A stretch of DNA of 64,000 nucleotides, taken from contig CP142736.1 in the NCBI GenBank assembly GCA_036630325.1, positions 806,001-870,000 on the forward strand. The letters run 5' to 3'. The notes beneath the pieces are model-generated. The model saw only the letters and a list, made by a program, of their open reading frames with translations, ran no database searches and was not told where the DNA came from. Below are positions 11,274 to 50,271 of the stretch, one piece after another; the first letter of the stretch is position 1, and each line of letters starts with the position of its first letter. Origin of the DNA: Vairimorpha necatrix (lineage: Eukaryota). The translations under genes were made by a program, and so were the position numbers.

Positions 11274-12147
11274 TCGGGATAAAGGGATATTTATATATCA
11301 AATGAATATTTAATATATATACAAATCATGACTAAACAATATTATTGTATTTTTATATATTCATTCCAAAAGTTTGAAGTAGAAAATTGTAATGATTATA
11401 CTTGTAACCAATATAAACAGTGATATTTGTTGAAAGATTCAGAGAAACTAACATAATTACAAAAACACATTCATTGCAAAAATTTTGAGATCAGATAGTG
11501 ATTTATTTAATACCTCTAAGTACAAATTAAAATCGAACTTACTATTTATTACTTAGAAATACAATTTAAAACAATTCTGTTTAGTACGATGACACTTATC
11601 ATCCTAATAAATTCACCACAATCAAAGTCATATGGCATACAACTATAATTTGAGTAAGAGTATGCTTTCAAAATCAGCATGTGTAATAACAGTACCATTC
11701 CATAGCTCTTTTTTTAGAATAGTTGTAAAATCATATTTCATGATTTTCCAATTAACCAAAATGTAGCAAGAAACGGACTAGCGTTTACTTTTGTTTGACT
11801 AGCCCACACGTATTTATATTTTCATACACCACTCTAGATTTGAAAATAAATTTTGAAATATAGACCAATGTATAATATTGAAAACCTTAAATAGCTTGTA
11901 TAGAAATGCATTGGTACACCACCACTCCTTTAATTGCATTTTTAAATGAACATGGTAAATAAAAATGCGCGTTTTCGTTGCAATTTAAGATTAGCTACGA
12001 TATTATTTTTCGCATAGTAAAAATATTTTTGTAATTGTATACGTATATATTTATAGGGTAGAGTCTGTATTTTTTGTTTGTTGTAAAAGAATTGTAAAGT
12101 ATAGATCACTTTGGTTAAATGATAATGGTCTTAATTGCACAAATATT

Positions 12148-13251
12148 GGTGCATCTTTAGTAACGGGCCAGAAGGTAAGGGTCCCCCCTTATAAACAAAA
12201 AATTTAGAAAAAATACATAAAAAACATATAAAAAGGCAGTTTTAATTCAATAACTTAGATAATAGATCAAGAAATCCATGATAAAAGCCGTTTATGTCGT
12301 CTTCTCGCAACATTTTCTTTCTAAACATAAACTCGTCTAGCCAAGTATCTATTTCAGACCGTTTTACTCCATGTTCTTTTGTCATCTCTGATTTTAATTG
12401 TGGCCAGACGTTTTCAATGTTATTTGTATGTATGCCATCAGTTGATAAGAATCCTATAGAATGATTAACGACATGATGATCCAAACATAAGTTCTCGGCA
12501 ACACGAGGATAACTCGGATGCCCGTCACTGTGTAGCACCGAACCCACGCCAATTTTTCCCTCTAAAGCGGCTGTAAGGCATTCAACCGTTCTATTTTCTA
12601 CTCTCGTAATGTAAAAATTTGAAGGGTTTTGTGTATCAATTATGCCTACGATCCAAACGGTGTCCCTTATGTAATCATCGGCGCTTGTAGGGGACCGTAT
12701 TTTACCCCTTCTGCAAATTACGGATTCGTCTACTTGGATAACTTGACCCGGTCCACCTATTACCATTCTATTTCGGATGGTTTCCCTAAAAATACTTCTT
12801 AACCTTGCTTTAGCCGATGAAATTGTAGCAGTAGAAATACCTAATCTCGCCATTATCTGAAAGTAAGAGTCCCTACACAGTATCATAAAGATAAGATCGC
12901 AAAAAGTAAATAATGGCAGTTTGCAGCCTTTATTAATAGCTTACCTGACATTGCATTTGTAATTCATGCAACGATACGCTCCTCTAGTAACGACTACTTC
13001 TCTTCTAGGCCCTAACTTCATTATAGAGCCACACTTGGTGCATGGTTTTTCTTCTTTTAGAACTTCTAAATACACTAAAGACTCTAAACAGGCGTCTAAG
13101 TCATTAAAAAGTCTTTGTATTAGCACAAGCTGCATTTTGGTGCTTTTCTTTAGTAACGGGCCAGAGTTTTCAAAATTTGTATTCTCCATTTAGGGGGGTA
13201 AAAATTATTTTTTAAAACTGTAAAATTCTGGCCCGTTACTAAAGATGCACC
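12148..13251 (-). mobile_element. Merlin (IS1016/IS1595-like) DNA transposon, 1104 bp
   Basis: Perfect 26-bp TIRs GGTGCATCTTTAGTAACGGGCCAGAA (12148-12173 and reverse complement 13226-13251). 8-bp TSD CAAATATT (12140-12147 and 13252-13259). Encodes a DDE transposase. Confidence 0.95.
12242..13189 (-). pseudogene. Merlin/ISXO2-like transposase with one in-frame stop
   Basis: ORFs 12941..13189 (Zn ribbon CTKC..CMNYKC) and 12242..12886 (VIQVDES, LHSDG, VNHS, HTNNIENVW motifs) share one frame. They are joined by a TAA at 12941-12943 and 18 open codons (AINKGCKLPLFTFCDLIF). Start context ttacccccctaaATG. Confidence 0.9.
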
Positions 13252-15044
13252 CAAATATTTGTATAGAAACAATTAACCCGTAAGTACATAAACTGGAAAG
13301 TTTAATTCAGATACACGTATTAAAATCATTACAGATACTTTTGCAATTTAATAGATCATAAATCTAATATTATTTACAGATATTTAAAGAAATATTATCT
13401 GATTTATATCATAGTTACTGTTCCATACAACAAAAAATTCTCAAGACAGAGTACTTTGGCTGATTTTACATCTTATTTGGTTTCCACAGAAATATTAGAT
13501 TAAGTGAGTAGAGAGTTTCATTGGTAAAGAGATATGAACCTATAATATTAAGCAAACAACCACTAAGTAGATCAATTGTGTGATATAAATATCTGTCTGA
13601 AAAAAAATTAAAATGTATGTCTTGTCATACATTTGTATCAAATTAAGTTAATTAAAATTGTTTGTAATATGTGTATGTAATTATAAAACATAACATATAG
13701 ACTTAAAATTGTTTTTTAGCATATAGTATGTAATTAGTACTTTTATTGAATCTATAATTTGTTCATAATAATTGAATTTTTATAATCATTGTACCAAGTT
13801 TAGTTTTTGTTTAGGTTTATTGTCCAGCTTTGCATTATGTATAAATTTTTCCATTTAATTGCTTTTATCAGTTAAGTGATTGACAAATTTTTTTTTGGTA
13901 GGAAATGTATAGAAGATGATCCTTTCATGTAGTATATAATTTCTCTGGTCAATGTATGATAAATTATAACTATGCGTAAAAACTCAATATAACACGTCCA
14001 GAAAACCTGCAGGTTTCAAATAATAACCACTATATCCATTTGTTGAATTTTAAAACGCGTTTTTTGTGCAAAAAAAAAACAAGTTTAGATTAAAGATCAA
14101 AACTGCAAATGGCGATATAAATATATAATGATTTCCCATCATACATGACGCTATGACTTTCATCGATTCTATATAAATTATTATTCGTTGATACCTAGCT
14201 TTGTAATTTTTTCTGAAATATGTATCATAATAAAAAAAAAATTGTTCTAGTTTTCCCTCCATTTTTCTTGTCCGGTAACAATCAAATGAACTTTTGTTGG
14301 CTTTTAAAATATATTTGCTATAATTGCGATAAGTTTGCAGTCAAAAAAAATTTGTTTTCTTTTACTTTTAAGCAAAAAGAATTTATGAAGCTTATTTTGT
14401 TGAAACAAATTTTTAGAAGATAATTTTTCTAGTCAAGACAATAAAAAAAAATCATAGATATGATTTGAAAAGGGAAAATAAATTGCTTGTGGATATTCAG
14501 ATAAATAAATAAAAACACAAAAAATTATGTAATTTTCTTGTTAAAAATTACATATATTTAGATATTAATCAAAAAGTATTGTTTTATAATTTATTAAATA
14601 ATGTCAATATGTAATATTTATCGTTATCCTGAATTTGAAATTATACAACAAAACATTATTATACTTTTCCGCTTCTGATATTTAAATAAACATGTAAGTG
14701 AAATAGGGTTGCTCTTACAGCAACCGATCATAATCAAATAATTTCAAATTAATAGGCTCTAAGTCAATTTGAGTTTTAATATAAATTTTAAATCATCTTT
14801 AATCTTATAAAGTCTGTGATATAAATATCTATCTAACGATGACATCTAAAAAAGACTAAAATGTTGGAATTTAAAGGGTTTAGTAGTAATATATCCTGTT
14901 TTCTTCTTACTCAAATCAAGAATTACTTGATGTAAAAATAAAGTAGCAGTTACTTTTTTTATGTTTAACTGTAGAATATTAGAGATTTATTTTTATTATT
15001 TGTTGAATAACTATAAATAGCTATAATATTATTAAATACCCCTT

Positions 15045-18000
15045 ATGTCTACTATTCTCAACATGGCTCCCGGTACGGAAAACTCGTATAGAAGGATGGA
15101 AGCACCCAACTTCAGTTTAAAAAGTGCACTTGTAGATTGCATGAAGTTTGAGATATATTTTAAAGACAAAAATATAATTGTAGATGAGGAAAAAATAAAC
15201 ACCGTCTTATTATTTTCAGACGATGAAGCCGCTTATTTCTTATACACAAACAAAGAAAATTTTACAAAAATTACATGGCGAACATTTAAGGGAAGAATTA
15301 AAAAATACATGGAAAGGAATGCTTTAGAGAAAATTTTAAAATCAAAACAAAAATATAATGAAGCAACAGCAACTTGGATAAAAAGAGTTCTTCCCCTGGC
15401 AAGTGCAGCCAACTTGCCTCAAGAATTTACTAAAATGCTTATTAAGAATACATGTGTTAACTTAGATTCAATGTTGATTATCCAAGAATGTTTGATGGAA
15501 CGTAATATTTACAAAGAGAAAGAAATGATACTAAAAGATAAGATGAAGTGGAATATATTAAGAAAACTGTAAAAAAGATAAGAGCTAATAGAGAGACAGT
15601 AATGAGAAGAAAAGGCGTTTCAGAGCCAAGACATAAAGAACCCATTAAACAAACTGACAAAACTGAAATGAAAAAATTTAATCAATTAGTAAAAGAGCCT
15701 ATAGATAACAACAAAAGTGATAATGTAACTGAGATAAAACTAAACAGTGTAAATATCTCCGCTTTTATGGATGAAGGATCAGATGTGAACATCATCAATG
15801 AAAAGAAGGTAGAAGAAAGAGGACTTATTGCATTACCCTGTGAACATACAACAATAAAAAACGTGTTTGGGGTAGTAACAGAACTGACTAAAAAGGTAGA
15901 GGTAACATTAAAAATCAATGATATTATACTTACTCAGGAATGTTATGTAGGAGCTTTTAAGAATTCCAATGAAGATATAGTTATCGGCAGGCCAACTTTA
16001 AATAAAGTAAAAAAACTTAAAAATGAACTTTCGGAGCTTGTAAGAAAATTTCCAAAGGTTTTTGATGGAAAGACAAGTAAAGGATACACGGATATAATGT
16101 GTGAGATAAACACACCGATAGGTAAAAAAGTTAATATAAAATACAGAAACATACCACAGGCCCTAATAAAAGGAGCACAAGAAACAATTAACAAATTATT
16201 AGAACAAGGATATATAGAATGTTCGACATCAGCTTGGTGTAATCCCATAAGACCAGTATTGAAACCAGATGGCACTGTTAGAATTACAAACAATATGCAA
16301 TTTCTGAATAACCTAGTTGAAGATAATAACTATACAATACCTGTAATTCAAAACATAGTAGATGCCACGCGAGGCAAAAGATTTTTTACAGTTATAGATC
16401 TGACAGATGCCTACTATCAAATACACCTGAAACCTGAACATAAATATAAAACCGCATTTTATTTTAAAAATAAACTATATCAATACACACGGATGCCACA
16501 AGGCTTTAAGAATTCACCTGGCATGTTTCAAATGATAATGGATAGATTACTAGAAAACCACCTTGAAACTGCTTGTTGCGTCTATTTAGACGACATAATA
16601 ATTTTTGGAACAACAGAAGAAGAACATGACAATAACCTAGCTAATGTTTTGACGATACTTGAAAAATACAACTTCAAGGTTAACCCAACTAAATTACAAT
16701 TTAAACAAGAAACTATTAAATTATTAGGAATGATGATCGATGGAAAGAAACAATATCCAATAGAACAACATCAAAAAAAGGTATTAGATTTTAAAGTACC
16801 AACTACAATTAATGAGGTACAACGATTTCTAGGATTAGCCAATTATTACAGAAGGTTTATCTCAAACCTAGCTACAATATCTGCTCCGCTTTATGAATTA
16901 CTTAAAAAGAAGAATGAGTTTATATGGAAGGAGGAGCAACAAAAAGCATTTGATATTATTAAAGAAAGAATCAACAGTAAGATTGCTAGACATATTCCTG
17001 ACTACGACAAACTCTTTATACTATCCACCGACGCATCAAATACAGGAATCGGCGCATGCCTACAACAAGAGCACAATAAAGAAATTGCAGTTGTAGATTG
17101 GGCATCAAAGAAACTGACAGATGCCGAGAAAAAATATGGAATTACAGAAAAAGAATTTCTGGCGATGGCTTGGAGTATTACACACTTTGATTATTATCTA
17201 CGAGGAAGAAAGTTTAAAGTAATAACAGATCATTCTGCAATTTTATCTATGAAGGATAAACACATTTTTGGAAACCTACGACTAGAACGAATGAGAGAAA
17301 AATTACAGGATTACGATTTCGAAATTGAATATCGAAAAGGCAAAGAACTAATAGACGCCGATGCAATTAGCAGGATTTATGAGGATCCAAAAGGAGTTGA
17401 AGAACTTAGAACTAAAAATAAAAACGTATAAATCGATTCTGATGGGAAGTGGTACTATAAAGTAAATGAAAATGAAATTAGATATTTCCCCGAAGTTCTT
17501 GAAAGAAAAGATATTTTATATAAAGCACACGAAGTAAACACCGTGCATGGTGGAATAAGTGCCATGACTTACGAATTGAAAAAGAACTATTATTGGCCAA
17601 AAATGACAGAATCGATAACAAATTATATAAAAAACTGTGAATCATGTGTCCGAAACGATCAAAAAAGCTTAGGAGGTGAAGAATTTGTAGAAACACAAAG
17701 GCCGTTAGAAATATTTGGAATGGACCTAATGTTTATTGACCAGAAGACGACACTTATGACTTGTATAGATTACTTTACACGTAGATGTATGATAAAGCCC
17801 TTAAAATCAAAGAAAGCTAGCGTTTGTAGAAATGCAATAACAGAAATGTTTCAAGAGATTGGAGTTCCTGAGAAAATTATTACAGACAATGGAAAAGAAT
17901 TTACAGCTACAACTATAAAAGAAATCATGTCTAATATGTTAGTAAATCACCATAAAATATCTATAGACAAGCATCAGTCTAATGGTAGAATAGAAAGATT

Positions 18001-18412
18001 ACATAGGAAAATTTGGCAAGCATTAAAAAAAATAGAATGTAATCAAAAGGAAACATTAGAAGAAATTTTATATGATGTAGAAAATAAAATTAATAATACA
18101 TTTAATAGAGCAATAGGTTGTACCCCGAACGAAGCATGGGATGATCCTGATAATAAAACATTGAAAGAATTGAATAAAAAAGATTCAAAATACGGAAAAG
18201 AATTTAAAAAACTTCCACGTGAAAAATTTAGAATTGGAGAACAAGTGTTTATTCAACAAAACCCAATGCAGGCACAGGACAAGCTCAACGATAAATACAT
18301 TGAAGAGGGAATGATACATACTGTGTTAGAAAATGACTCTTACTTAGTAAAAGTAAACGATAAACTGATCAAAAAGAGCCATTCTCAGCTCAAATCAGTA
18401 CCAACTATATGA
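15045..18412 (+). pseudogene. Element A gag-pol polyprotein, disrupted
   Basis: Gag-like 15045..15572. Frame change plus TAA at 15539-15541. Protease-like FMDEGSDVNII, RT YLDD, RNase H TDAS/EFLA/TDH. In-frame TAA at 17429-17431, then open frame into the integrase (H..H..C..C, TDNG, SNGRIER) ending at 18412. Confidence 0.9.
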
Positions 18413-18460
18413 TTGCTTGTATAAAACCAAAATACATAAATTTTTATTTTTTACCCTCAA

Positions 18461-19017
18461 ATGGAAACAGAAACTAGTCAAAGAACTAAAAGTATATGTA
18501 GATCAACTTTAAATATGGAAATAAGACTCTTGAACCTGCAGTCCAATCTAAAAGACGAAGAAAAATTCAATTATATAATTAGGAATGCAAGTACAGATTT
18601 GGGAGAGTATATATTACAAGAAGGTTTACAACATGGAAGGGCATCGAAAAATGTGCCGAAGACCAAAAACTCACAGCTGACACCGTTTTAAAAGTATGTG
18701 CAAACACAAGGAAAAGCACTGAAACAGTAACTGAATATCTAGGCAGACTTGGAAAGGACTTAAAACGGCTTGGAGCCACGGATAAAATGATAATAAAATA
18801 TTTAAGCCTTACTGTTGCTATGGGAAATGTGGAAGTCCACATGATGTTAAGCCTACACACTGATATGGAGGAATTTTTGGCCCACACTTCTAAAATACTT
18901 ACAAGCAGAACAAGAAGGAATAAGCTCACCAATAAGAAAAATTGCAGTTTTTGTAAACAACAGGGACATGAATCAGAAAAATGTTTCAAAAAGCCAAATT
19001 TTAAAAAAGATCAGTAG
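18461..19017 (+). pseudogene. Element A second ORF: gag-like protein with C-terminal CCHC zinc knuckle (one frameshift near 18628)
   Basis: Own start context aaatttttattttttaccctcaaATG. Switching to the -1 frame near 18628 gives an open frame TTWKGIEKC...ETVTEYLGRLGKDL...CSFCKQQGHESEKC (CX2CX4HX4C) to TAG at 19017. Confidence 0.75.
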
Positions 19018-21694
19018 ACCGCAGTCGTATTTTCGGGCGGGATGTTGAATAACTATAAATAGCTATAATATTATTAAATACCCCTTATGTCTACTATTCT
19101 CAACATTATTGTTACTATTATTTTAATACACATTACATTTATTTTATTGTGTATGTTTCTTTTTTTTATCAGTTTATTACTTTGATTTAACACTATATTT
19201 AGTAGATTAAATTATGAAAATTTTCAAAAGTCAAATAAAATGTTTTGATCAAATATTCGTTCTAAAAAAATTTAACTTTTTATCAAGTGATCCTTCAATT
19301 TAAACTAAGTGTCGTTGTAGAAAATATTATTTTTAAAACTAAAATTAAATAAATTCAAAAAAATTTGCTAATCAAAACTATACATATATACTCAATAATA
19401 TTAATGACGATATAATTATCGAAAATCATGTAAAATTATACTGGACACGAAAAACAATACACACGAACCATGTCGTTTCCCCCTAATAATTATTTGATAA
19501 ATTGAGAATATATACATGTTTTTTATTTACTTTATGCGGGTTATTTGTTACAAACAAAAATAAATATATAAAATCTTGTGCCATTTGATATTAAACTGAG
19601 TGACATAAAAAATGAAGCATAAAACACATCATTTATTAGGTCAAAGCAAAAGAAACCACCACCAAGGTTCTTTATTTTTTTGACAAATATTATATTGGAC
19701 CTAGTTCAATCTGTTCAAGATTATCTGTGCAGGTTTTTTAAAAACAAAATGCTCAATTAAGTATATGTTTAATGTATAATAAATGTGATTATCTAATATT
19801 GTTTCCGGGATTCCTTTGCCACAGTATTAATCTCATTTAATTGCCTTCGTAAGTTATTTTTTCTTTGATCATGATTTACCTTCATTATCGCTGAACTGAT
19901 TTTTATTCTACTATTTTGTTTCAGTTTAATGTAATTTATCTTTGTATCCATATAAACTCTTATTGCATAATTTAAATTATAACTATATTAACATACAGGG
20001 ATATATCGAGAAATTTACGTTTTTGTTTATTTTAAGAAAAAAACGAGGAATGTTTATTCGTTAAATTATTAATGATATATTTTTTTCTATCAAAACATGA
20101 ACGACAATCGCTTCGACCCTATTATATTTTTTGCAAAACATTCGGCTTTATTATATCAACTAGTCTGAGTGATTTATAATTCCATTGAATATAATTAAAA
20201 AATATATAAAAAATAAGGGGTTTATTAAGAAACAAAAAATTGAGGGGTTCATGAAATTATTAAATAACTTTGAATGAGTACGTTATAAAAAAATAATACC
20301 GGCGTTTTCGGGTTAAGAGATCCACCCTAGAAGAGACCATGGATCTCTTAAACTAGTGTAAAATAATTTCTTTTGAAAAAGTCGCAAAATTTGACTTTTA
20401 ATGTGGATCTCTTAACCGGGTAGTAACATTTTTAATGAATTTAATACAAAAAAATTATTGTAAAATCAAAAGTTTCACGTATTTTTAATAGCTTGCAAGT
20501 ACAAAACACCACATAGAAATAAGAATGAAAGATTGCAGTGTTAGATTTATGTGGGCTGACCCATACAATATCTATTTATGCATTATGATTTTATTATTCA
20601 ATAAACGTATGCAGAAAATTTATCTTTGGGTGTAAATTTTTGATTGTGACTAAAGTATATTCAATTAATATCATATTTTTTTTTGTAAATTATTAGTTTA
20701 AATTTTGAAATTGTTTATCTTATATTATTTTCTTTTATGATAATTACCGTAATATCTTAAGCTTCGAATATCCGTTTTTATGTATTGAAATAAATTGTTC
20801 GTCAATTTAATTTTAAGTTTGTCAAATGTATAAATAAGAATCTATGTGCTTATAATCAGTTAATTTATTGTGTAAAACAATAATTGGCAAAATTAATATA
20901 ATGAATAATAGAAGATTTTAGTAAGTCTCGGCCATAACTCATAATAAATAGAGGGGTTGGAATAACCAATACTAAATTATTAAAAAAAAAAAAAATACTC
21001 ACGTAAATTTCATTTTTATTTTTTTTTACTAATTATTTTTAACCTTTTAACACAATATCCCATTGAGGTTTTGTTGGATATTTTACAAACAACAAAGTGT
21101 AGTTCTTCGATAATTTTTTTAGTTCAAATATGAATATTTTACGGTATATATTTCATATGCCACTGCATGGGATGTGAATTCAGAACAACTTCACCAAATA
21201 TTATAATCTTAAAATTTCCTAACAAATAACAAGTTTTTTTTACATACAATCATCATAAAAAGAAGTAAACAAAAAATTATGCCTTGAGCGCAAATAAGGC
21301 CTGCAATGCCAATATTTTGTGTAAAAAAACATAATAGAAGTATCTGGAGGTGTATAAGTCTTTGGAGAGAGCCAAAAATAACATATGAGTTATTAGAATA
21401 AAAATTTTATACATATTAATAATGCTTTCCGTCAAAACACTTACAAAACAATAAATTCTTTTATAAACAAGAAAAAAGAGATTTAGTACTGATCATAAAA
21501 AGGATATATGACTGCACACTTTCCAATTTATAAAATTCATATTAATTTTAATTTTTAATACTAGAAAAAAAACAATTATTACATGTAGAAAGTGTTTTTA
21601 AATAAAAAAAACTAATAATATTAAATATAACAGTGATTGAAGATTAAAATTATCTAGATACTAAAGAAAACGTAATAATAAATTGAGATTGATA

Positions 21695-21976: not shown

Positions 21977-22863
21977 GTGGGGTAAATTTTTTTTTTAAAA
22001 AAACATCGATAAATTCTTTTTGGGTAAATGAAAAAATTTATATTTTAAAAAAAAAATTTCTCGTTAAAATGTATTATTACTCTTCAGAAGTTGAATAAAT
22101 TCTTTCTGTGTGTTTATAAGATTTATAGCAAAAAGTTTATTATGATAAAATTTCAAAGGGAAATAATGTCATTAGAAGTTGAAAAAATTAATCAAGATCG
22201 ACTTTATATAGTCAACCAATAGAGTTTATAAGGTAATAATCTAAATAATATTTGTATAAATATACCATGCTCGCAAAGCAATTATTTAATGTGTCATGGT
22301 ATTTAAGACCAAAATAAAGAAGTGAATTGGATTTTTGAAACTACAAAACTAAAGATTCTGAAGGAATATCCGGCCTGTTACTCTTAGAGGTTTTTGAATT
22401 CTGTTTTCGGAATCGAAGACGAGAATATAACCAAGAAGATAAAGGAAAGTTAAATGATAGATCTATGAGTATTTTAGCAGCCAATACACTTTAGAAGCAA
22501 AAGAGTTATGAATGAAAAGATATGATTTTTGTTTTTTTACTTTGCAAGTAAAAATTTTTTTACACTTACACAAATCTCTGATATGCCAATTCCCGTTATT
22601 AAAACAGGACTCCGTATATTTACGACATCTAAAATAATAAGATAAGTCATTTTTTACAGTATTATGATGGCAACTTGTTAAAAAACATTTCCAGAATAAA
22701 ATTAGATACAAATAAAAAAAACATGATTTATAGATAAAATTTTTGTCGTAGGAGCTCAAGGCTTCTACATATTTGACACGTTTGACATTTCTCAATATTT
22801 TATTATTTAAAACTTTTATATTTTACCCCCAAGCAAAATGGAAGGAAGAGAAGAAAAAACTAA

Positions 22864-25800
22864 TGTTATATATCCTTATTATTTTTACCCCTCATTATGG
22901 AAAATAAACACATGGGGGCGATACCAGAAAATGGGTCTACAAAGGAGGACCGTGGCCAAGAGGCTAGAATATTATTAAAAGAGGTTAAAAGGATTGTTTA
23001 TGAGTTGTTTTTAGAGAAAATTGATGAGTGTGGATTTAAATTAGAAATTTTTAGGAGAGGTTCTATTTTATTGAGAAATTTTATTGTTGAGAGGATCTCG
23101 CAAGAGGGTAGTTGGAAGGAAATTGAGGAAAAATTAGAGTTGCTAGCTATTCAGGAGGAAAAGGAACAAGTGAGAAAAAAAGAATTTGAAGAGTTGTCCC
23201 TAGCGTTATGGGCTAAATTTGAGGAGAAGAATAAGTTGTCTCGTGAGGAAAATAAAAAGAATATGCGTTGCTACAATTGTGGGAAGTTAGGCCATAGTGT
23301 TAGATTTTGTAGGGGAATGAGGCGAGATTCTGAAGACAGAAGAAATAAAAGTAGTTTTAATTATGTTGGTAAATGTAAAGTGCAATTAGACTTAGGGGGT
23401 AAATGTGATGACGATTCCAATTCGGACAAATGTGATTATTATAATGTTGATGGTGGAAAACGTAAGAAGAAAAATTTAGGGGATATACAAGATTATAGCA
23501 AAAGGGACAATAATAAGAGAGTTCTGTTGAGAAGGGATGTAAGAGGCATCGCGTATTTAGAGGAGATTATTTCACGGGTAGGAGGAAGAGAGGATGAAGA
23601 TATTAGTTTTTGTAAGGTTGAAAAATGTATTATCAAGACTCAAGAAGGCAAGAAAGTTGTTAAAAAAGGGCAGGCTATAGCTCAGGCTTTGTTGAAGAAG
23701 ACGGAAGATTATATTAATAGTTTGGAAAGAAGAAAGATAATTAGAAGGTCGACATCTGACTGGAGAAATCCCATTAGAGCGATTGAGAACCCGAATGGTG
23801 ATATAAGATTAGTAAGTAATTTAATTGCTCTTAATGACATTGTAGAGAAGGATCCTTATGAGTTAACTAGGATAAGAGATGTTATTAGAAGTACACAGGG
23901 ATCTGAATTTTTTACCGTGATAGATCTAAAGGAGGGGTTTTATAGTATTGAGATTGAAGAGAAGGATAGGTTTAAGACGGCTTTTGAGTTTAATAAAAAG
24001 GTATACGAGTGGAATTCGATGGTCATGGGGTTTAAAAACTCTCCGCAGATATTACAAAGAATAATGAATGGGATTTTTGAAAAATTTATTGGTAAGGGAA
24101 TCGAAATTTATATGGACGATATTGTGATTCATAGTAAGACAAGAGAGGGTCACGACAAATTGTTGAAAGAGGCTGTGGATATATTAGAGGAGAATAATAT
24201 GAAAATTAATTTGGCTAAGGTTCAATTATGTAAACGAGAGGTGATGTTGTTAGGAGTAACAGTTAATGGCAAGGAGATACTGCCATCTGAAATAAAGCAA
24301 AATGAAGCGTTAGAATTTCCCAAACCGGGGTGTGTATCAGATGTTAGGAAGTTTCTTGGGCTGGCTGGATGGTTTAGAAATCATATTGATAATTATGCAA
24401 AACGTACATTGGCGTTGACGGATTCTCTTAAAGGACGAGGAAGTAATTGGAAATGGACAGAAGAAATGGAAAAAGAATATATTAGTTTAAGGGAAGTGAT
24501 TAGGGATTTAAAAGGTTTAGCAATTGTTAATTATAATAAGGAATTTTTGTTACGCACGGATGCGAGTAATGTTGGAATGGGTGCTGTTTTAATGCAGGAA
24601 GATGATCAAGGTAATTGGGTACCAGTACAGTGGGCATCAAAAAAGTTTACGCCTACGGAAACGAGATATGGAATCAGTGAGAAGGAGATGTATGCAGTCT
24701 TTTGGGGAATTAAAAAGTTTGAATATGAACTACGCGGAAGAAGATTTAGGGTAGAAACTGATCATAAGGCATTGATCGAGATTAGAAATAAACCAGCATT
24801 TAACAATAGTAGAATTAACAGGTGGATTGAAAAGATTCAAGAGTTCGACTTTAGCATTGAATATAGAGAGCCTAGTACCATGGTTGTAGCAGATGCACTG
24901 AGTAGGGTACATGAAAATGAGAAAACGCTAATGAATAAGGAGAGAAGTATTAAACAGGCACAGGGTAAATGGGACAAGCATGTTAAAGTTGTTGATGGGA
25001 AGGAAATTTGGGTATTTGACTCTGGTAGAGAAGCGGAGATTCCAAAGAAAGAATTGCGTGAAGGTTTAATTGTCAATGCTCATGAAAATTTGGGACATAG
25101 AAGTTTAGGATCAGTGTACTATGCAATGAAGTTTGAATTTTATTGGCCGGGTATGAAGAAGGATATCGAGGATGTTTTAAAGAAGTGTGAAGTTTGCCAA
25201 ATATATAATAGGAAAAAGAGTGGTGGTTGTGATTTTGTTAGTTCAAGATTTTATTTGGAAAAGGTTGCTTTGGATTTGATTGAGTTTAGAGATTTAGGGA
25301 AATATGTGTTGGTCGTGATTGATTATTATACTAGGATCGTTTGGGGAAAAGTAATAGAGTACAAACGCGGAAGCTCGGTTGTAGGGTTTTTAAAACAGTT
25401 GTGTGGATCAGGAATGAAACCGGTAGAAATAATTACTGACAACGGTAAAGAATTTAGTAATGAATATATGAGGAATTGGTGTTCAGAGGAAAATGTATTA
25501 CATAGGAAAGTAAGCGTAGAAAGTCATAGAAGTAATGGAAGAGTGGAAAGGGTAATAGGAACCATAAGAGAAGGAATATTGAAAGATGATGCTGTGGATT
25601 TTGAAGCCAAGGTTAATAGATGTATATGGCGTTATAATAACAGCTATCATGAAGGGTTGAGATGTACACCGTTTGAGGCCTCAAGAGACGAAACGGGCCA
25701 TGATATGATCGAGAATGGGCCTGAAGGATTTTATAGTAGGAGGTTTGTGGCTCGCAAAAGAGAGAAATTCTATAAAGGTCAGAGAGTTAGGGTAGCGAAG

Positions 25801-26046
25801 AAAGAGAACTTATCGGGTTGTAGTAAGTATGAGAAAGGAAGGTTTTTAGGATATGGTGTTATCAAGGAAGTTTGCGGAGGTGACTCGTCTTAGTTAGTTT
25901 GGAAAATGGTAGGATCGTGAAAAAGCGGCATTATGATTTAAAAGGTCTGCTTGGGATTAATGAGTTCTAGTATGAGACTACCGTCTTGGAGGGGGGATGT
26001 TATATATCCTTATTATTTTTACCCCTCATTATGGAAAATAAACACA
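22864..26046 (+). mobile_element. Ty3/Gypsy LTR retrotransposon C (3183 bp, 49-bp LTRs) nested in the 5' LTR of B
   Basis: Identical LTRs 22864-22912 and 25998-26046 (TGTT...CACA). TSD ACTAA (22859-22863, 26047-26051). PBS TGGGGGCGATACCAG at 22913. PPT GGAGGGGGGA. Confidence 0.95.
22897..25893 (+). CDS. Element C single polyprotein: short Gag + CCHC knuckle, RT, RNase H, integrase; no recognisable protease
   Basis: CYNCGKLGHSVRFC, YMDD, TDAS, HHCC and TDNG/SNGRVER motifs. A probable 1-nt deletion near 25888 truncates the tail: the alternate frame reads LVSLENGRIVKKRHYDLK..., ends at 25970, and matches the C-terminus of element A. Confidence 0.88.
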   Translation: MENKHMGAIPENGSTKEDRGQEARILLKEVKRIVYELFLEKIDECGFKLEIFRRGSILLRNFIVERISQEGSWKEIEEKLELLAIQEEKEQVRKKEFEELSLALWAKFEEKNKLSREENKKNMRCYNCGKLGHSVRFCRGMRRDSEDRRNKSSFNYVGKCKVQLDLGGKCDDDSNSDKCDYYNVDGGKRKKKNLGDIQDYSKRDNNKRVLLRRDVRGIAYLEEIISRVGGREDEDISFCKVEKCIIKTQEGKKVVKKGQAIAQALLKKTEDYINSLERRKIIRRSTSDWRNPIRAIENPNGDIRLVSNLIALNDIVEKDPYELTRIRDVIRSTQGSEFFTVIDLKEGFYSIEIEEKDRFKTAFEFNKKVYEWNSMVMGFKNSPQILQRIMNGIFEKFIGKGIEIYMDDIVIHSKTREGHDKLLKEAVDILEENNMKINLAKVQLCKREVMLLGVTVNGKEILPSEIKQNEALEFPKPGCVSDVRKFLGLAGWFRNHIDNYAKRTLALTDSLKGRGSNWKWTEEMEKEYISLREVIRDLKGLAIVNYNKEFLLRTDASNVGMGAVLMQEDDQGNWVPVQWASKKFTPTETRYGISEKEMYAVFWGIKKFEYELRGRRFRVETDHKALIEIRNKPAFNNSRINRWIEKIQEFDFSIEYREPSTMVVADALSRVHENEKTLMNKERSIKQAQGKWDKHVKVVDGKEIWVFDSGREAEIPKKELREGLIVNAHENLGHRSLGSVYYAMKFEFYWPGMKKDIEDVLKKCEVCQIYNRKKSGGCDFVSSRFYLEKVALDLIEFRDLGKYVLVVIDYYTRIVWGKVIEYKRGSSVVGFLKQLCGSGMKPVEIITDNGKEFSNEYMRNWCSEENVLHRKVSVESHRSNGRVERVIGTIREGILKDDAVDFEAKVNRCIWRYNNSYHEGLRCTPFEASRDETGHDMIENGPEGFYSRRFVARKREKFYKGQRVRVAKKENLSGCSKYEKGRFLGYGVIKEVCGGDSS

Positions 26047-26070
26047 ACTAATAAACATTTTAATATCGAC

Positions 26071-29000
26071 ATGGCGACAGTGGCAAAAGCAATTAGTGAA
26101 TTTAATGGCGATCGAGGCGAAGACACTGAAATGTGGTTAAAGAAGGTGAACATCTTGGCTCAGAGTGCCGGACTTTCAGAGAACTCCATTTTAGGGTTAA
26201 TCATAATTAAACTGACAGGAGTTGCCCAGACATATTTGATATCTTTGACCAATGGGAACATTGCTAATATTACCTTAGGGAGTTTAATAATAAGTTTAAA
26301 AAAACGGTTTGGTAACCAAACGAATACAGATGAGATTCTTGATCATTTTTTAGCAATTAAATCAGTGAATTCCTACGAAGAATATTCAGAACTACTCAAA
26401 GAAGCCACCACTTTATTCGAAAGAGACTGCATTGCACTTAAATCACTAATAAGGATGACTATATCTAAGTCTCCGCGGGAACTTAAAACATTGCTGTATC
26501 AATATTCATGCTGCGCTTCAAACTGGAATAACTTTGTCCAACAAGCGGAGGAGGCGGCCTGGATGGCTTTTCCCGAGAGAATCAACAATAGATTAGCCTC
26601 TACTGGAACTAAGACATTATATCAGAAAAGAGAAAGACTGCCTCAGAATATTTAAGGAAAAAAATTGTTCTGCATTATTCACAAGCAAGGGAGCCACACA
26701 ACAGATGATTGTTTCATTGTTAAGCAATTGGAAGATAAAGGCTGGAGAAAAGGGAAATCAGCAAATGCGTTAGAAGAAATAAATAAAGCCGATAGCAACA
26801 TTGACCAAGAAAATAAAGACTTCAACGTTTACACTTCTAATTCTCTTAGTTATAAAAGAAACCCTTTCTTTATATATTCCACCCTTTCAAAAGCTGCCCC
26901 TCACCTGACACTACTAGATACAGGTGCCGACATCTCTTTGATAAACATAAATCAAATATTAGATAAAAATAAAATAACATCAACAAGTGCTAAAATTAGA
27001 TCGGCTTCGGGCTCCTTCATCAATATTATAGGTGAAATTAAGAACCTCAGATTGAGAGTATTCGATGAAGAAATTATATTCTCCCCGTTAGTATGTAAAG
27101 GTTTACCTGACTATTCTATTCTCGGAACGGATGTTATTATAAAATACCCACGCTTGGTCCAAAAAATTCTCCGAAATTTCTTACCTTCAACGAAAATAAA
27201 TTGTATTCCATTAACGCAGGAGATTGGAACGAAAAGTAAAACGGACCTTACAGAAAGAAAGATTAGGTCTAATACTATTTGTAAAAGTGAGAATATGGGT
27301 CAACCAATCACTTCAGAAATTCGTCCCAAAGAGAACGAAATAATTACTAAATTTTCCGGATGCTTTGGAGAAACCATCGCACCAGAACCCATTAAAGGTG
27401 CAACATTGCATTTCATTGACACAGGAGACCATCCTCCTATAAACCAAAAAAACTATCGAATCCCGATACATTATGAACAAGAAATTTCTGAAGACATTTG
27501 AAGGAATCTACAATTGGGTGTTTTAATAGAATCTAATAGCCCATGGTGTTCAAGACTCGTCCCCGTTCAAAAGCCTGATAAATCTTTAAGATTATGCATT
27601 GACTTCCGAGCTCTGAATAAAATAACAATAAGAGATAAATCCCCGTTACCCCGAATTGATGAAATACTAGACAGACTAGCTGGGGCAAAGACGTTTTCGA
27701 CCTTAGATGCAACATCTGGATACTACCAGATCGGTATGAATGAATCAGATAAACAGAAAACAGCGTTTGCATGGAAGGGCGGGCTATATGAATATAACAG
27801 AATGCCTTTCGGATTATGTAATGCTCCCGCTACTTTTCAAAGAGCTATGGATAAACTTATCGGAAATCCATGTAATGATTTTGTTATCCCGTATCTAGAC
27901 GATATAATCATATTCTCAAAAAACGAAAAAGAACATGGGAAACATCTTCTCATTGTTTTAGAGAAATTAAAAGAAACAGGAATAGTGCTAAAAAAATCAA
28001 AATGCACATTTTTTAAAGACGAAATTAAAATACTAGGCAATATTGTTTCAAGGGGATACTTAAAACTTGATCCCACGAAGATTGATACAATTCAAAAATA
28101 CCCATTTCCAGAGAACCTAAAAAGCTTACGATCATTCTTGGGGTTAGTGAATTACTGCCGCGAATATGTAGCATCTTATGCATAGTTAACAGGACCATTC
28201 TTTAGTCTTCTTAAGGGAGAAACGAAAAATAGTGTAAAAAGAGTACACTGGTCAGAAGATTTACAGATAAAGTTTTCAAAGTTAAAGCAAGCTCTTGCCG
28301 GCGAGATAAAATTGAAACAACCAGACTTTAAAAAAAAATTTATCTTAATCACAGACGCGTCTGAAATTGGAATTGGTGCAGTCCTTGCACAAGCTGACGA
28401 TAATGGTGTAGAAGAGGCCATCTCCTTATTTAGTAAAAGATTCGACGATTGTCAAATGAATTACTCAGTTACAGATAAAGAACTTCTGGCTGTCGTTAAA
28501 GGCATAAATAACTTTAGACATTACCTTTTGGGGAAAGAATTTACGTTAAGAACTGACCATAAAGCGCTAACGTACTTATGGGAATCAAAAAATCCTACAA
28601 GTCGGATCCTAAGATGGTCAATGATGTTACAAGAATATAAATTTGACGTTGAATACATAAAGGGAGAAGACAATATTGCTGACGGCTGTAGTAGAATATT
28701 TAACAAGGAAATAAGAATTTCAAGTATCATTAAAGATTTTTCAAAAGAAGAAAAAGAGGAAATACTTAAAGCATATCATATAGAAACTGGGCATGGATCT
28801 ATTAACAACATGAAATTCGCAATCAAAGGAAAATATTTCTGGGAAGACATATATAAAGACATCGAAAAGCTGGTTACTGAATGTGTTATCTGTTTAAAGA
28901 ACGGAAATAAAATAAGAAATACAAAACACAGGGTAATTGAAACTTATAACCATAATGAACTTTGGGAGGTTGATTTGATAGGACGGATCCCATATAATGG

Positions 29001-29751
29001 CACTAACCATTTCATTTTAGTAGCAATCGACCACTACAGTAAATGGATAGAGACAAAACATTTGAAAAATAAGGAAGCTGAAACCATTAGAGATTCTATT
29101 GAAGAGCTAATAATCAAGAAACATGGTACTCCAAAAACAATTTTGTCGGATTGCGGGCTCGAGTTTAAAAACAAACAAATAACGGATCTAAAAGCAAAAT
29201 ATGGGTTTGAATGGAAATACTCATCACCAGAACACCATAATACAGTGGGATGTGTTGAGAGAGTGAACCAAACACTTTGGATAAATTTAAAAAAACTCAC
29301 CAATTACGGAGAATCTTCATGGAGAAGCGCATTAGAAAAAGCAACACACGCTGTGAATGTTTCATTTAATAGAGCCATAGGAACTTCCCCATTTATTTTT
29401 AAATACGCGAGATCCCCTGATTTTGAGATTGACAAGAAATTTGATAGGAAGCCCATAAAATTCCAAAGAATGTCTCTGACTAAGAAGAGAAATGAAAATT
29501 TTGCTAAATATAGAAAAAGCATAGAAAAGGGTACGATAACGGCCCCGTCAAATTTTTCAATTGGTGATAAAGTTCTTATATACAGAGAAAACAAAAATAA
29601 TAAAATGAAAGCTAATTGGTCTCCTGGTTATGAAATAACGGATAGAATACTACCGGATGGGTTTATGGTTAAAAATAACAAAAGTTTAATTAGAGTTAAT
29701 AAAGCTCATATCAAACAAGACCTTTCTTTTGGGGGGAGGGAGATGTCGTAG
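26071..29751 (+). pseudogene. Element B gag-pol single frame with three in-frame stops
   Basis: All track ORFs from 25951 to 29751 share one frame, broken by TAA 26653-55, TGA 27499-501 and TAG 28183-85. Motifs: CIIHKQGSHTTDDC knuckle, LLDTGAD protease, YLDD RT, RNase H, integrase. The original ATG at 22838 in the 5' LTR is now separated by element C. Confidence 0.9.
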
Positions 29752-29927
29752 GAGCTCAAGGCTTCTACATATTTGACACGTTTGACATTTCTCAATATTT
29801 TATTATTTAAAACTTTTATATTTTACCTCCAAGCAAAATGGAAGGAAGAGAAGAAAAAACTAATAAACATTTTAATATCGACAATTTTATTGCAAAAATT
29901 AATCTATATTCGTATTAATATTTATTT

Positions 29928-33504: not shown

Positions 33505-35259
33505 TCAAAAACTATCTTCACACAACTTATCATATTCTTCAGGAGGACAGCTTTTAACTTTACAAACTTTTTTCGGGACACATTTTCTTTTTTTCTTTTT
33601 TGATATTGTTTTTTTAAATATTTTTTGCTTACTTTTTTTATTTCTATGAGTCTCTGGTCTACGTAGTGTACTGCTTTTTAATAATTCTTTGATTAAAGGT
33701 ATAATGTCTTCGTCGCAATCTTCCTTGGGCTTGGGAGGTGGAACAGATGTTGTATGAGGAATAAGAAGCGGATTTGGTGTTTCTTGACTTGGCTGCAAAT
33801 AAACTGTGCTGACCTTATCTTCGTTTGGTACTAAAAATACTGTACTGACTTTCTCTGGTTCTTTATTCATATACACTGTACTGACTTTCTCGGGTTCTTT
33901 ATTCATAAACACCGTGCTAGCTTTTTCTGGTTCTTTAGTTATGAACACTGTGCTAACTTTTATTGGTTCTTTTGTTATGAACACTGTGCTTACTGGTTCT
34001 TTAACAGGTTCACTTGTCTTTTTGCTTGCTGTTTCTGGTTCTTTAGTTATGAACACTGTGCTGACAGGTTCTTTTGCCGGTTCACTTGTCTTTTTACTAG
34101 CTGTTTCTGGGACTGGTTCTTTTGTTATATAAACTGTACTAATCTTCTCCTTTTCTACTGTTTCGGTCGATGGTACATATACTGTACTGACATTGTCTTC
34201 TTTTTTATCTGGTGTTGTTGATGATGGTCTGTAAATTGTACTGGTCTTTTCGCTTGGCTGAGTTTCTGATAGACTAGGTTTAAAAACACTTACTACGTTT
34301 TCTAGTCCTATACTAGGTGCAGATCCTATGGTAGTTGTTTTTAATATTTCGGTAGTATAAGTCGATGTCTTTAAAACTTCTGAAGTTACAGTTGATGTTT
34401 TAAAAAATGTTTCAGTAATTGTATCTCGTTCTGTAAAAGTTGTTAATGAATAATTAACAATTGGCACTTTAGAAATAGAAGTAGTAGTATGTTCCCTATA
34501 AAGAGTAAGAGGCACTTCTACTGTTACAGTGGTAGGTATTTCTCTTATGACTGTTGTGATACCTTCGTCATTTTTTGATTTTGGTTTTTTTATTTTACCT
34601 TTTGGATGATCATCACGATCTGAAGAGTCTGTATCTTTTTTTGATACACCGTCTTCATCATCTTTTTCCTCTTTACATTCATTTTTATCTTTAGATTGCT
34701 TACATTTTTTTTTATCTTTTTTTTCATCACAATCACATTTACCTTTAGATTCCTTACATTTGCATTTGTTTTTCTCTTCATTACATTCCTTACCTCCTTC
34801 ACATTCCGTTTTATCTTTCTTCTCTTTTTTATCTGTAGGTTCTTTATTGGTTACTGTTTGTTTAGGCACATTTATTATTACTGTACTGGTCATGGTACTA
34901 GTGTATGTCAGTGTATTAATAGCAGATTGTTGAGCATTAGTTATTTGTGTGTTCGTTGGCGCCGCAGGTTGAGTATTTATCGGCGGCGCGGGCTGTGCAT
35001 TTCCTTGTTGCACTGTAGTAGTCATTATAATTGTCTGCGGGTTCATGTTTTCATTTCCATTTACCACTACACATTTAGTTTTGTTGCAGTTATCTTCTTT
35101 TAGTTGCAAATTCTGCCTATTCATAAATGCTTTATACTCCGAACTAGGTATAAATGATGAATTTATACATTCATTATCTTTAATATTAAAAATTTTACAT
35201 TTGTTAAGTAGATCTAGATTGGTAAGAGTAAAGACAAGTAGGCAGTGTAAAAGTATCAT
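33505..35259 (-). CDS. Secreted Thr/Ser/Pro-rich mucin-like repeat protein with Cys/Lys-rich segments (possible spore-wall/surface protein)
   Basis: Hydrophobic N-terminus, T-rich tracts, KEP(E/V)KVSTVF repeats, C/K-rich block, basic Cys-containing C-terminus. Confidence 0.75.
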   Translation of the reverse strand: MILLHCLLVFTLTNLDLLNKCKIFNIKDNECINSSFIPSSEYKAFMNRQNLQLKEDNCNKTKCVVVNGNENMNPQTIIMTTTVQQGNAQPAPPINTQPAAPTNTQITNAQQSAINTLTYTSTMTSTVIINVPKQTVTNKEPTDKKEKKDKTECEGGKECNEEKNKCKCKESKGKCDCDEKKDKKKCKQSKDKNECKEEKDDEDGVSKKDTDSSDRDDHPKGKIKKPKSKNDEGITTVIREIPTTVTVEVPLTLYREHTTTSISKVPIVNYSLTTFTERDTITETFFKTSTVTSEVLKTSTYTTEILKTTTIGSAPSIGLENVVSVFKPSLSETQPSEKTSTIYRPSSTTPDKKEDNVSTVYVPSTETVEKEKISTVYITKEPVPETASKKTSEPAKEPVSTVFITKEPETASKKTSEPVKEPVSTVFITKEPIKVSTVFITKEPEKASTVFMNKEPEKVSTVYMNKEPEKVSTVFLVPNEDKVSTVYLQPSQETPNPLLIPHTTSVPPPKPKEDCDEDIIPLIKELLKSSTLRRPETHRNKKSKQKIFKKTISKKKKRKCVPKKVCKVKSCPPEEYDKLCEDSF

Positions 35260-35699
35260 GTATTCTTATTTATTTATAAATTACTTATTGATTTATTTAT
35301 ATTTTAAAACATATGTTTCATTAGCACGATTTAGAAAATGAAAAAAAAAATACATTAAAATTTAAATGAGTTCATACACAAATGTATTTTAAGTTACAAA
35401 TATTTATTAAAAATTCATATTTGATTTTTTTTTGCTATATTTTTATAACTTAGTTTTAGGTTAAAATTACAACTAAAATCAATATATTGTGTGTCTTACA
35501 TTCTATAATATATTGTGCATCTATTATTTATAATATCGTATATCTATTGCTTTAAGTGTGTTGTATGGCTTAAATTTTATAGATTTATGTCTTACACTCC
35601 TTATAGTTTTTTACAACTTGCATTATATAGCTTATACATTTATTTATAATGTCTTATATTTTTTTTAAATATATATTGATGTTTTTTTATACCCTCTAT

Positions 35700-46137: not shown

Positions 46138-46250
46138 AAAATAAAGACTTATTATATTTGTTATAGTACACTACCATAAAGACATAACCTTAATATTTTA
46201 AAGAAAAGTTTAAGATATAATAAGTCTAATGTTTTACATATAATCCCATT

Positions 46251-49200: not shown

Positions 49201-50271
49201 ATGGCGATTACAGTGTGACCATTAATTGAAACTGGAAGTTTTACTGTTAAATATTCAGACTTTTCTTTTAAAACTACCTTACAGTGAGAAAACTTAAGAT
49301 CTTTATTAGTTTTTAATTCATCCGTTTTGATCTTACTATTTTTATTCTCAATTCTTTTATTTTTACTGTAACACTCACTGGTGTTATGAGTTCTTGATTT
49401 GTGTAAGCTACACCATCGATTCATCTCATTTCTCAGTCTTGGTTCATTGACCTCGGCTTGAGAATTCTTAGTTAGCTCTAAGTCATTCAGAATTCTGACT
49501 ACTAATTCTTTCTCCAGGTTTATCAATAAGTATATAATGTCTTTAACACTCTTGGTATTAGATTTCATGACATAATCTTTGGTAGCGTCAGATAAAGCGT
49601 TCAAACAAATTTCATTAAACCTACGCTCATACTCACTCTTGGTATATTTTTCTATAAAGGATGCCACTTCAAGTTTGGCATCGATATCGGCAAACATATC
49701 CTCTATTAAATCATAATTTTCTTGTTTAATATCTAGCACTCTAACTCCTAAATTTGAGAATAAGTGATGCGGATATGAAATATTTAGTATTTCCTCCTTA
49801 AATTTTAAATAATTTTTAGAATTATCTTTTCCTTTCCATTCTTCACTTTCGATCAAACTTTGTAAAACTAGAAGAGTCTCTTCCTCGTCCCATTCCAATT
49901 TATTTTTTAGTTCTTCGAATTTTCGAAACCATGCTAACATATTGGTTTTCTCGATATTAGTTATAATCTCTAATTGCTTAATTATAGGCTGCTTTAGGCC
50001 TTTGACATTGATCTCAAAGCTGATCATGTTCCCTTGGTTTTTAATTTCTATCCTTTTATTAAGTTTAGGATACATCTTTGTTAAATTTAACTTGTGGTAT
50101 CCACCACTGAGGAAAGTATTTAGAAGATTTTTATTATTGATTTCATTCTTTCTTTCCATCATTTCGTACCCCTCTCCGGATAAAATATTTAAATAAATGT
50201 TGGAGGGAAAACTGAACGAATTTGGAGGGAAAGATTTTAAAAATATATTTTATGATATTTGGTATATCATA
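46251..50271 (-). mobile_element. Ty3/Gypsy LTR retrotransposon D (4021 bp, 179-bp LTRs)
   Basis: Direct repeats 46251-46429 and 50093-50271 with no mismatch seen. TSD CCATT (46246-46250, 50272-50276). PPT AAGGAGAGGTAGA on the minus strand. Inserted between two convergent host genes. Confidence 0.95.
46449..50162 (-). pseudogene. Element D gag-pol single frame with one in-frame stop
   Basis: CSLHKSRTHNTSEC knuckle, ILDTGC protease, YIDD RT, TDAS RNase H, HHCC/TDNG integrase. The stop at 48537-39 arises from a 6-bp tandem duplication (RLVVD*DYREL). Confidence 0.9.

Follow-up and report, generated by a model that had tools for sequence, protein, structure and literature searches.

A candidate stand-alone gag gene behind pol in Ty3/gypsy-type retrotransposons of Vairimorpha necatrix

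Introduction

Ty3/gypsy retrotransposons of microsporidia have been described as encoding a single polyprotein (Parisot et al. 2014, PMC4202319; repeated in PMC13174016), at least in the parts of these papers that concern them, and because of this single-polyprotein design (PMC4202319) no frameshift is left to set an excess of Gag. The parts of PMC4202319 on Ty3/gypsy elements mention no extra open reading frame (ORF); its supplement may hold such a mention. Here, we analyze a long terminal repeat (LTR) retrotransposon at positions 15001–19105 of a 64,000-nt stretch of Vairimorpha necatrix DNA (assembly GCA_036630325.1, contig CP142736.1, positions 806,001–870,000, forward strand), which we refer to as the window. 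An original prediction, made from the letters of the window, proposed that this element carries a second Gag/nucleocapsid gene with its own start signal downstream of pol. We find that this gene, ORF3, has the predicted fold of a capsid, occurs in two families of elements behind a conserved host-type start signal, and may be their major Gag.

How single-ORF LTR elements make so much more Gag than enzyme has been settled for only a few model elements. Drosophila copia uses a spliced gag RNA, and fission-yeast Tf1 has a single ORF and relies on Pol turnover. Additional ORFs after pol in LTR elements include env in gypsy and env, GDSL, and DEDDy genes in bdelloids, according to the parts of PMC5408684 that treat them. 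Our literature search found no gag located 3′ of pol; most subscription papers and the Nosema bombycis Nbr paper were outside its reach.

Results

A Ty3/gypsy-type element with an additional gene behind pol

The element is composed of the following features, in window coordinates.

14996–15000 (left) and 19106–19110 (right): 5-bp target-site duplication, TTATT
15001–15063 (+): 5′ LTR, 63 bp, TG..CA ends; CCCC motif at 15039–15042; first in-frame ATG at 15045
15064–15075 (+): putative stretch resembling a primer-binding site (PBS; TGG..), doubling as 5′ Gag codons
15045–15572 (+): 5′ Gag-like domain without a zinc knuckle, terminated by a frame break in the window copy; weak profile match to ORF3 from end to end
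15731–16009 (+): aspartic protease (PR); Pfam Asp_protease E 0.003, below the curated cut-off
16280–16738 (+): reverse transcriptase (RT) core; Pfam RVT_1 E 4e-33
16925–17314 (+): RNase H (RH); Pfam RT_RNaseH E 2e-29
17501–18412 (+): integrase (IN), H2C2 zinc finger plus rve, running to the pol stop
18413–18460 (+): 48-nt spacer with AAATTT at 18438–18443 and CCC at 18454–18456; putative internal promoter/start signal
18461–19017 (+): ORF3, stand-alone Gag with predicted two-lobed capsid and CCHC knuckle; frame-broken near 18625
18943–18984 (+): CX2CX4HX4C zinc knuckle of ORF3
19035–19042 (+): short purine-rich stretch resembling a polypurine tract (PPT), conserved among family-A copies
19043–19105 (+): 3′ LTR; ATTAAA at 19073, putative shared poly(A) signal

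The direct LTRs are identical (63/63) and have TG..CA ends, and a TTATT duplication flanks them, confirming the predicted LTR retrotransposon with 63-bp repeats. Together with PBS- and PPT-like tracts, the PR-RT-RH-IN order of the pol domains by Pfam (the PR match is weak) is that of Ty3/gypsy elements. As predicted, the window copy has no zinc knuckle ahead of PR: the 5′ Gag frame lacks one, and so does the linker that joins it to PR. The start of ORF3 was also described correctly: the pol stop ends at 18412, and the 48-nt spacer contains AAATTT at 18438 and CCC at 18454 before an ATG at 18461. ORF3 contains the ETVTEYLGRL segment and the canonical CX2CX4HX4C motif noted originally and stops at 19017, 25 nt upstream of the 3′ LTR. 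The first in-frame ATG lies inside the LTR, so that codons extend over the end of the LTR and over the PBS-like stretch (15001–15075); families B and D, described below, are built alike.

The element at 15001–19105 is real but dead. The window copy is broken at three places: a frame break near 15540 parts the 5′ Gag from pol, an in-frame stop at 17429–17431 follows RNase H, and ORF3 is split over two frames (18461–18691 and 18583–19017) by a break near 18625. Only one of five compared sister copies has the break near 15540; it is absent from the other four and from a contig of sequencing run X1, which is possibly not independent of the assembly, and in the family-A copy on contig C1 Gag is open into PR for 349 codons. 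Because most copies lack the break and one stays open this far, the native layout is a single Gag′-Pol frame, so that elements of families A and B read LTR, a Gag′-PR-RT-RH-IN frame of ~1,120 codons, ORF3, and LTR. A programmed gag-pol frameshift near 15540 was considered and rejected, as most copies have no break there and no slippery heptamer was seen by eye in the overlap. Pfam matches to TusA and DUF915 fell below the cut-off and were likewise rejected.

ORF3 has the predicted fold of a two-lobed capsid

ORF3 analyses used natural open frames only. A profile built from five such frames and searched against 1.84 billion representative proteins gave 35 protein matches, 32 of them at most 210 aa long. 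Twenty-two were 155–209 aa, which we treat as full length; 21 of these have an initial Met, and in 11 a complete CCHC motif ends 3–15 residues ahead of the stop. Four matches were left out of the alignment, three long proteins with 34–51 residues matched (P0018, P0023, P0031) and one of 70 aa (P0033). Species labels were found on four of 30 relatives looked up (Vairimorpha necatrix, Nosema granulosis, Pancytospora philotis, and Glugoides intestinalis), all of which we take to be microsporidian, and the V. necatrix-labelled protein is nearly identical to the family-B ORF3. One relative, P0001, is a family-B ORF3 annotated as an ordinary host gene, and its UniRef name, 'Regulatory protein zeste', looks like a mislabel. 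The longest contigs bearing relatives measured 3.9–4.1 kb in five cases, about the size of an element, which is a hint only; searches of metagenome contigs and viral contigs for the genomic context of relatives gave no match. Word-based protein searches gave no match for ORF3 near its own length or for the Gag-PR frame against longer proteins, and none for the ORF3 alignment against longer proteins (7,997 scored), the last being weak evidence against a fused form.

An AlphaFold model of the natural 168-codon family-A ORF3 frame, made with a 33-row alignment, had a mean predicted local distance difference test score (pLDDT) of 90 and a predicted template-modelling score (pTM) of 0.69. When this model was compared with 48,161 chains, the top seven were capsids of Arc, MOAP1, copia, PNMA2, and PEG10. 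The best match, Arc, had a Z score of 9.7 over 130 aligned residues with a root-mean-square deviation (rmsd) of 12.5, spanning residues 1–133 and both lobes, and the Arc C-lobe alone gave Z 8.2 and rmsd 4.0; Z below ~13 is common for helical models, which counts against reading much into the scores themselves, and the capsid case therefore rests on the top seven rows being one protein class. Foldseek placed Arc capsids at ranks 1–6 (best probability 0.95, E 0.054; none at E ≤ 0.001). Language-model features indicated Retrotrans_gag and zf-CCHC clusters for the family-A ORF3 and Retrotrans_gag (0.92) for the knuckle-less family-B ORF3. Pfam gave no gag match over cut-off in the ORF3 family, with Retrotrans_gag at E ≤ 0.1 in three of 33 members. 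Annexins topped a sequence search of the Protein Data Bank (E 1e-4; repeated short helical matches, with nucleocapsids weak) and were rejected because the fold searches point to capsids. Nor does ORF3 look env-like: residues 1–133 of 168 align to capsids, and the remainder is a helix plus the knuckle.

These results bear out the proposal that the ORF downstream of pol is of the Gag/nucleocapsid kind, the confident model matching capsids over both lobes and being followed by a CCHC motif. The canonical knuckle, however, holds for family A and not for the ORF3 family at large: the family-B ORF3 has a basic tail in its place, and the motif is complete in only half (11/22) of the full-length relatives, a point against ORF3 as the main Gag. 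In both families ORF3 reads as a complete capsid, followed by a knuckle in family A and by the basic tail in family B.

A host-type start signal precedes ORF3

AAATTT plus CCC is the class of signal found at microsporidian ribosomal-protein and highly expressed genes, which have very short 5′ untranslated regions (UTRs), as set out in the relevant parts of PMC2803860. Within the window, this combination stands ahead of six of 2271 ATGs. CCC with at least 80% AT upstream precedes three of the element's 101 plus-strand ATGs, namely the gag start, which occurs once in each LTR, and the ORF3 ATG at 18461. When any in-frame ATG within the first 45 codons was accepted, CCC lay within 14 nt of an early in-frame ATG in 12 of 17 window frames outside transposable elements, compared to 114 of 2271 ATGs overall, in line with a microsporidian host and the signal that PMC2803860 describes. 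Of seven family-A copies, six keep AAATTT plus CCC before ORF3, as do both family-B copies with a full ORF3; the pair lies in the 48-nt spacer in family A and within the last pol codons in family B, where the ORF3 ATG follows 2 nt after the pol stop. The LTR starts of both families have CCC without AAATTT. This pattern fits an internal promoter stronger than the LTR promoter, and its rarity in the window and conservation in both families uphold the prediction that ORF3 has a host-type start signal of its own. We consider it quite probable that ORF3 has its own internal promoter.

The position of the family-B ATG, so close to the pol stop, would also suit a structural or nucleocapsid Gag that needs no internal promoter and is translated from full-length RNA by reinitiation or from a spliced one, and the ORF3s of other LTR elements typically come from spliced messages, as described in parts of PMC5408684. 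Family A, however, has a 48-nt spacer, both families keep AAATTT plus CCC despite the different spacing, and reinitiation would be expected to yield less ORF3 than Pol. A simple pattern scan found no splice-donor-like motif near the 5′ LTR, the first being at 16040, and no branch-AG motif at 18301–18500. Synthesis of ORF3 by reinitiation or splicing is thus distinctly unlikely.

ORF3 is shared by two families and appears to be under selection

Family A comprises 10 elements in the V. necatrix genome, a lower bound. Seven hold ORF3; the other three are internal deletions that keep the last ORF3 codons, joined to pol or RT at short shared words in the way that template switching would be expected to join them. 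Family B, 54–61% identical to the window copy in RT-RH, has ORF3 directly after the pol stop, 28% identical to the family-A protein and without a knuckle. Among 14 B or B-like loci, ORF3 is full in two (uninterrupted in one), reduced to its last 10–27 codons in seven, and without a resolved 3′ end in five. Every resolved 3′ end of both families holds ORF3 or its tail; therefore, ORF3 was present in their common ancestor. In a midpoint-rooted RT-RH tree of 19 elements, all from the V. necatrix genome, A and B form one clade with family D as its sister.

The ratio of nonsynonymous to synonymous substitution rates (dN/dS) of ORF3 was 0.21–0.63 in six family-A comparisons and 0.66 in family B, and Fisher tests indicated purifying selection in three of five pairs (p 6e-7, 3e-4, and 2e-3). 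On this evidence, we are highly confident that ORF3 is a real, selected Gag gene. It might instead be a functionless captured fragment of another element, as its breakage in all seven family-A copies and its resemblance to the Gag of family D could suggest. This is extremely improbable given that ORF3 occupies the same position in two families as diverged as A and B, has dN/dS below 1 in diverged pairs, keeps its start signal, and has 22 full-length stand-alone relatives; in addition, no repeat bounding ORF3 is among the largest repeats listed for the window. The original prediction had named an origin as a piece of a different inserted element as grounds for its own rejection, and these observations contradict such an origin.

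ORF3-less derivatives lie on several contigs (family A: C1 and C3; family B: C5 twice, C6, C12, and C2). The ORF3-less joint was also seen in contigs of run X1; in that run ORF3 has no cover at 18424–18574, which proves nothing. The right flanks of the C1 and C3 copies are alike (1125/1361 aligned), and these two copies may represent one insertion. For pol, dN/dS was 0.4–1.6 among ORF3-less B copies compared to 0.08–0.41 against ORF3-bearing copies, a pattern that fits passive spread in trans and also simple decay.

Three further observations concern these derivatives. On contig C5, two family-B copies without ORF3 have a family-A solo LTR, 63/63 identical to that of the window copy and accompanied by a 5-bp duplication, inserted in their 3′ LTR (L018:547–609 and L019:399–461). 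Two near-identical 1.3-kb family-B derivatives on contigs C2 and C4 (L077:717–1980 and L078) have only the 5′ Gag, the PR start, and the ORF3 tail. In the ORF3-less C1 copy, one stretch of the integrase (L004:4260–4500; 208/240 identical) is more diverged than the remainder, with dS 0.23 compared to 0.08 in RT-RH, suggesting recombination between subfamilies.

ORF3, the 5′ Gag, and the Gag of family D

Family D has one ORF of 1,121–1,125 codons with capsid and knuckle at its front, and no ORF3. In profile comparisons, ORF3 matched the 5′ Gag of family D end to end (HH probability 97%, E 2e-11), matched the element's own 5′ Gag weakly (probability 61%, P 8e-5, 130 columns, 8% identity), and the 5′ Gag did not match the family-D Gag (0.5%); the 5′ Gag alignment is shallow (effective number of sequences, Neff, < 2), which weakens both comparisons that involve it. 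Because ORF3 matches the family-D Gag end to end and the 5′ Gag does not, the Pol-fused 5′ Gag is probably the derived copy, with ORF3 keeping the canonical Gag features. That the 5′ region is capsid-like, as originally proposed, depends on the weak match to ORF3; the proposal stands to that extent, and structure adds nothing to it: the 5′ Gag model was of low confidence (pLDDT 54), and two fold searches with it listed no capsid and were uninformative. A predicted complex of ORF3 with the 5′ Gag scored 0.28 against a mark of 0.34, giving no answer either way.

Several observations weigh against ORF3, made from an internal promoter, as the major Gag. ORF3 is unbroken from ATG to stop in none of the seven family-A copies that hold it, although pol is likewise broken in each family-A copy among the frames listed. 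The survey of genomic copies thus had a mixed outcome for the original prediction, with ORF3 retained in seven of 10 family-A elements, none intact, and ORF3-less derivatives in both families. Because these derivatives are spread over several contigs, ORF3 is dispensable in cis. Two of the five pairs gave no significant selection on ORF3 (p 0.20 and 0.38). Purifying selection also acts on the 5′ Gag (dN/dS 0.28–0.61; p 0.0004 and 0.02), which may still be the main capsid. None of the window's 12 host genes with CCC has AAATTT in front, and of two family-D LTR starts one does. Finally, single-ORF family D survives alongside A and B, so that an element in V. necatrix can do without a separate gag. 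For the same reason, the very short UTRs of the host, which the original prediction took the layout to suit, do not force it.

Some of these facts would agree with both capsids being made, the 5′ Gag forming the main shell, with its excess arising by Pol turnover, and ORF3 being a minor accessory such as a nucleic-acid chaperone or co-capsid. Family D uses the single-ORF design, the 5′ Gag is under selection, and ORF3-less copies are common. Against this, the ORF3 start has the stronger-class signal, and it is ORF3 that retains canonical Gag features no longer present in the 5′ copy; we regard an accessory role as distinctly improbable.

ORF3 could also be a self-encoded restriction or competition factor that poisons the element's own or rival particles while the 5′ Gag serves as the working capsid. 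The model for such a factor is Ty1 p22, which is made from an internal transcript and, in the parts of PMC4599808 and PMC8458377 that describe it, corresponds to the C-terminal half of Ty1's own Gag. ORF3, by contrast, has both capsid lobes and is only 8% identical to its own 5′ Gag over 130 columns, and the 5′ Gag, the working capsid on this reading, has no knuckle. Dispensability in cis, with deletion derivatives spread in both families, the resemblance of ORF3 to the Gag of rival family D, and continued selection on the 5′ Gag argue for restriction; the ORF3-less B copies, with dN/dS of 0.4–1.6, show no sign of a long independent life, a pattern that post-insertion decay would also give. 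Overall, we consider a restriction factor unlikely.

Other features of the window

The following features were also noticed in the window.

12138–13261 (−): transposase-like frame (12242–12940) between 36-nt inverted arms; presumably a DNA transposon of the Merlin/IS1595 type, which it resembles
22744–29864: LTR element with 121-bp repeats and a 1,009-codon second frame directly after the left repeat; no protease was seen between knuckle and RT
33505–35265 (−): 586-codon frame, rich in Thr, Pro, and Lys, that begins with a hydrophobic stretch and contains 36-nt repeats; it looks like a surface or spore protein
46250–50271 (−): third LTR element; its 180-bp repeats are identical, and a single stop separates its two long frames
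61002–61038: inverted match (84%) to nucleotides 1–37 of the LTR, lying just beyond the frame at 60954–61904; possibly chance or an LTR relic

Discussion

Families A and B have the structure of Ty3/gypsy elements, but a second gag downstream of pol sets them apart from the single-ORF design of microsporidian elements. They share with the described microsporidian elements one Gag-PR-RT-RH-IN frame, the same domain order, and short LTRs that hold the start codon, and gag and pol lie in one frame in the C1 copy; unlike those elements, they have a knuckle-less 5′ Gag and a stand-alone Gag after pol with its own start signal, so that the polyprotein is not their only ORF. Family D is linked to them through its 5′ Gag, homologous end to end to ORF3. 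As in other LTR elements with an ORF3, a family-specific extra ORF lies between pol and the 3′ LTR and is apparently expressed as a separate unit, but here it encodes a capsid, with or without a knuckle, rather than env or an enzyme, and probably uses an internal promoter rather than splicing. The minimal two-lobed helical capsid fold is that of Arc, PNMA2, MOAP1, PEG10, and copia capsids in the Protein Data Bank. Arc, PNMA2, MOAP1, and PEG10 are domesticated host genes, whereas ORF3 is still inside an element. Copia and Tf1 are likewise single-ORF elements and must obtain extra Gag by other means; they use one 5′ gag, whereas families A and B seem to employ a second gene for this purpose. In function, the closest precedent for a Gag product transcribed internally is Ty1 p22/p18, a Gag-derived protein made from internally initiated element RNA (from the pertinent parts of PMC4599808 and PMC8458377), as proposed here for ORF3, although p22 is half of the same gag and ORF3 is a separate, two-lobed, highly diverged paralogue behind pol.

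In the mechanism that we favor, the LTR promoter would yield genomic RNA and the Gag′-Pol polyprotein, and the host-type AAATTT/CCC promoter at the end of pol would produce an mRNA of ~600 nt that ends in the same 3′ LTR and supplies ORF3 in excess. ORF3 would build the particle and bind RNA, the diverged knuckle-less 5′ capsid domain would chiefly tether Pol into the shell, and PR would then free RT and IN. ORF3 may act in trans, in which case derivatives that lost it through template-switch deletion would still be mobilized. The gag behind pol may have arisen by duplication of the ancestral one or by capture from an element like those of family D, two origins with which the data are equally compatible, and the Pol-fused copy would then have diverged and lost its knuckle. 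We think that ORF3 is reasonably likely to be the main structural Gag and that an internal promoter combined with ORF3 as the major Gag is, on balance, likely. We propose only tentatively the wider picture of a Ty3/gypsy lineage across several microsporidian genera with reversed gene order, in which a working gag lies behind pol under a borrowed promoter of the ribosomal-protein class and the Pol-fused capsid serves as a packaging tag.

For one lineage, a separate 3′ gag with a putative host-type promoter gives a specific answer, open to testing, to the question of how Gag comes to exceed enzyme. If true, frameshifting, read-through, splicing, and Pol turnover would be joined by one more means of controlling the Gag:Pol ratio. 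Such a gag would also explain as retroelement capsids some 30 small 'hypothetical' proteins, some of which are annotated as ordinary microsporidian genes, and would provide a natural example of duplicated capsids with divided roles, as well as a very compact capsid for structural work.

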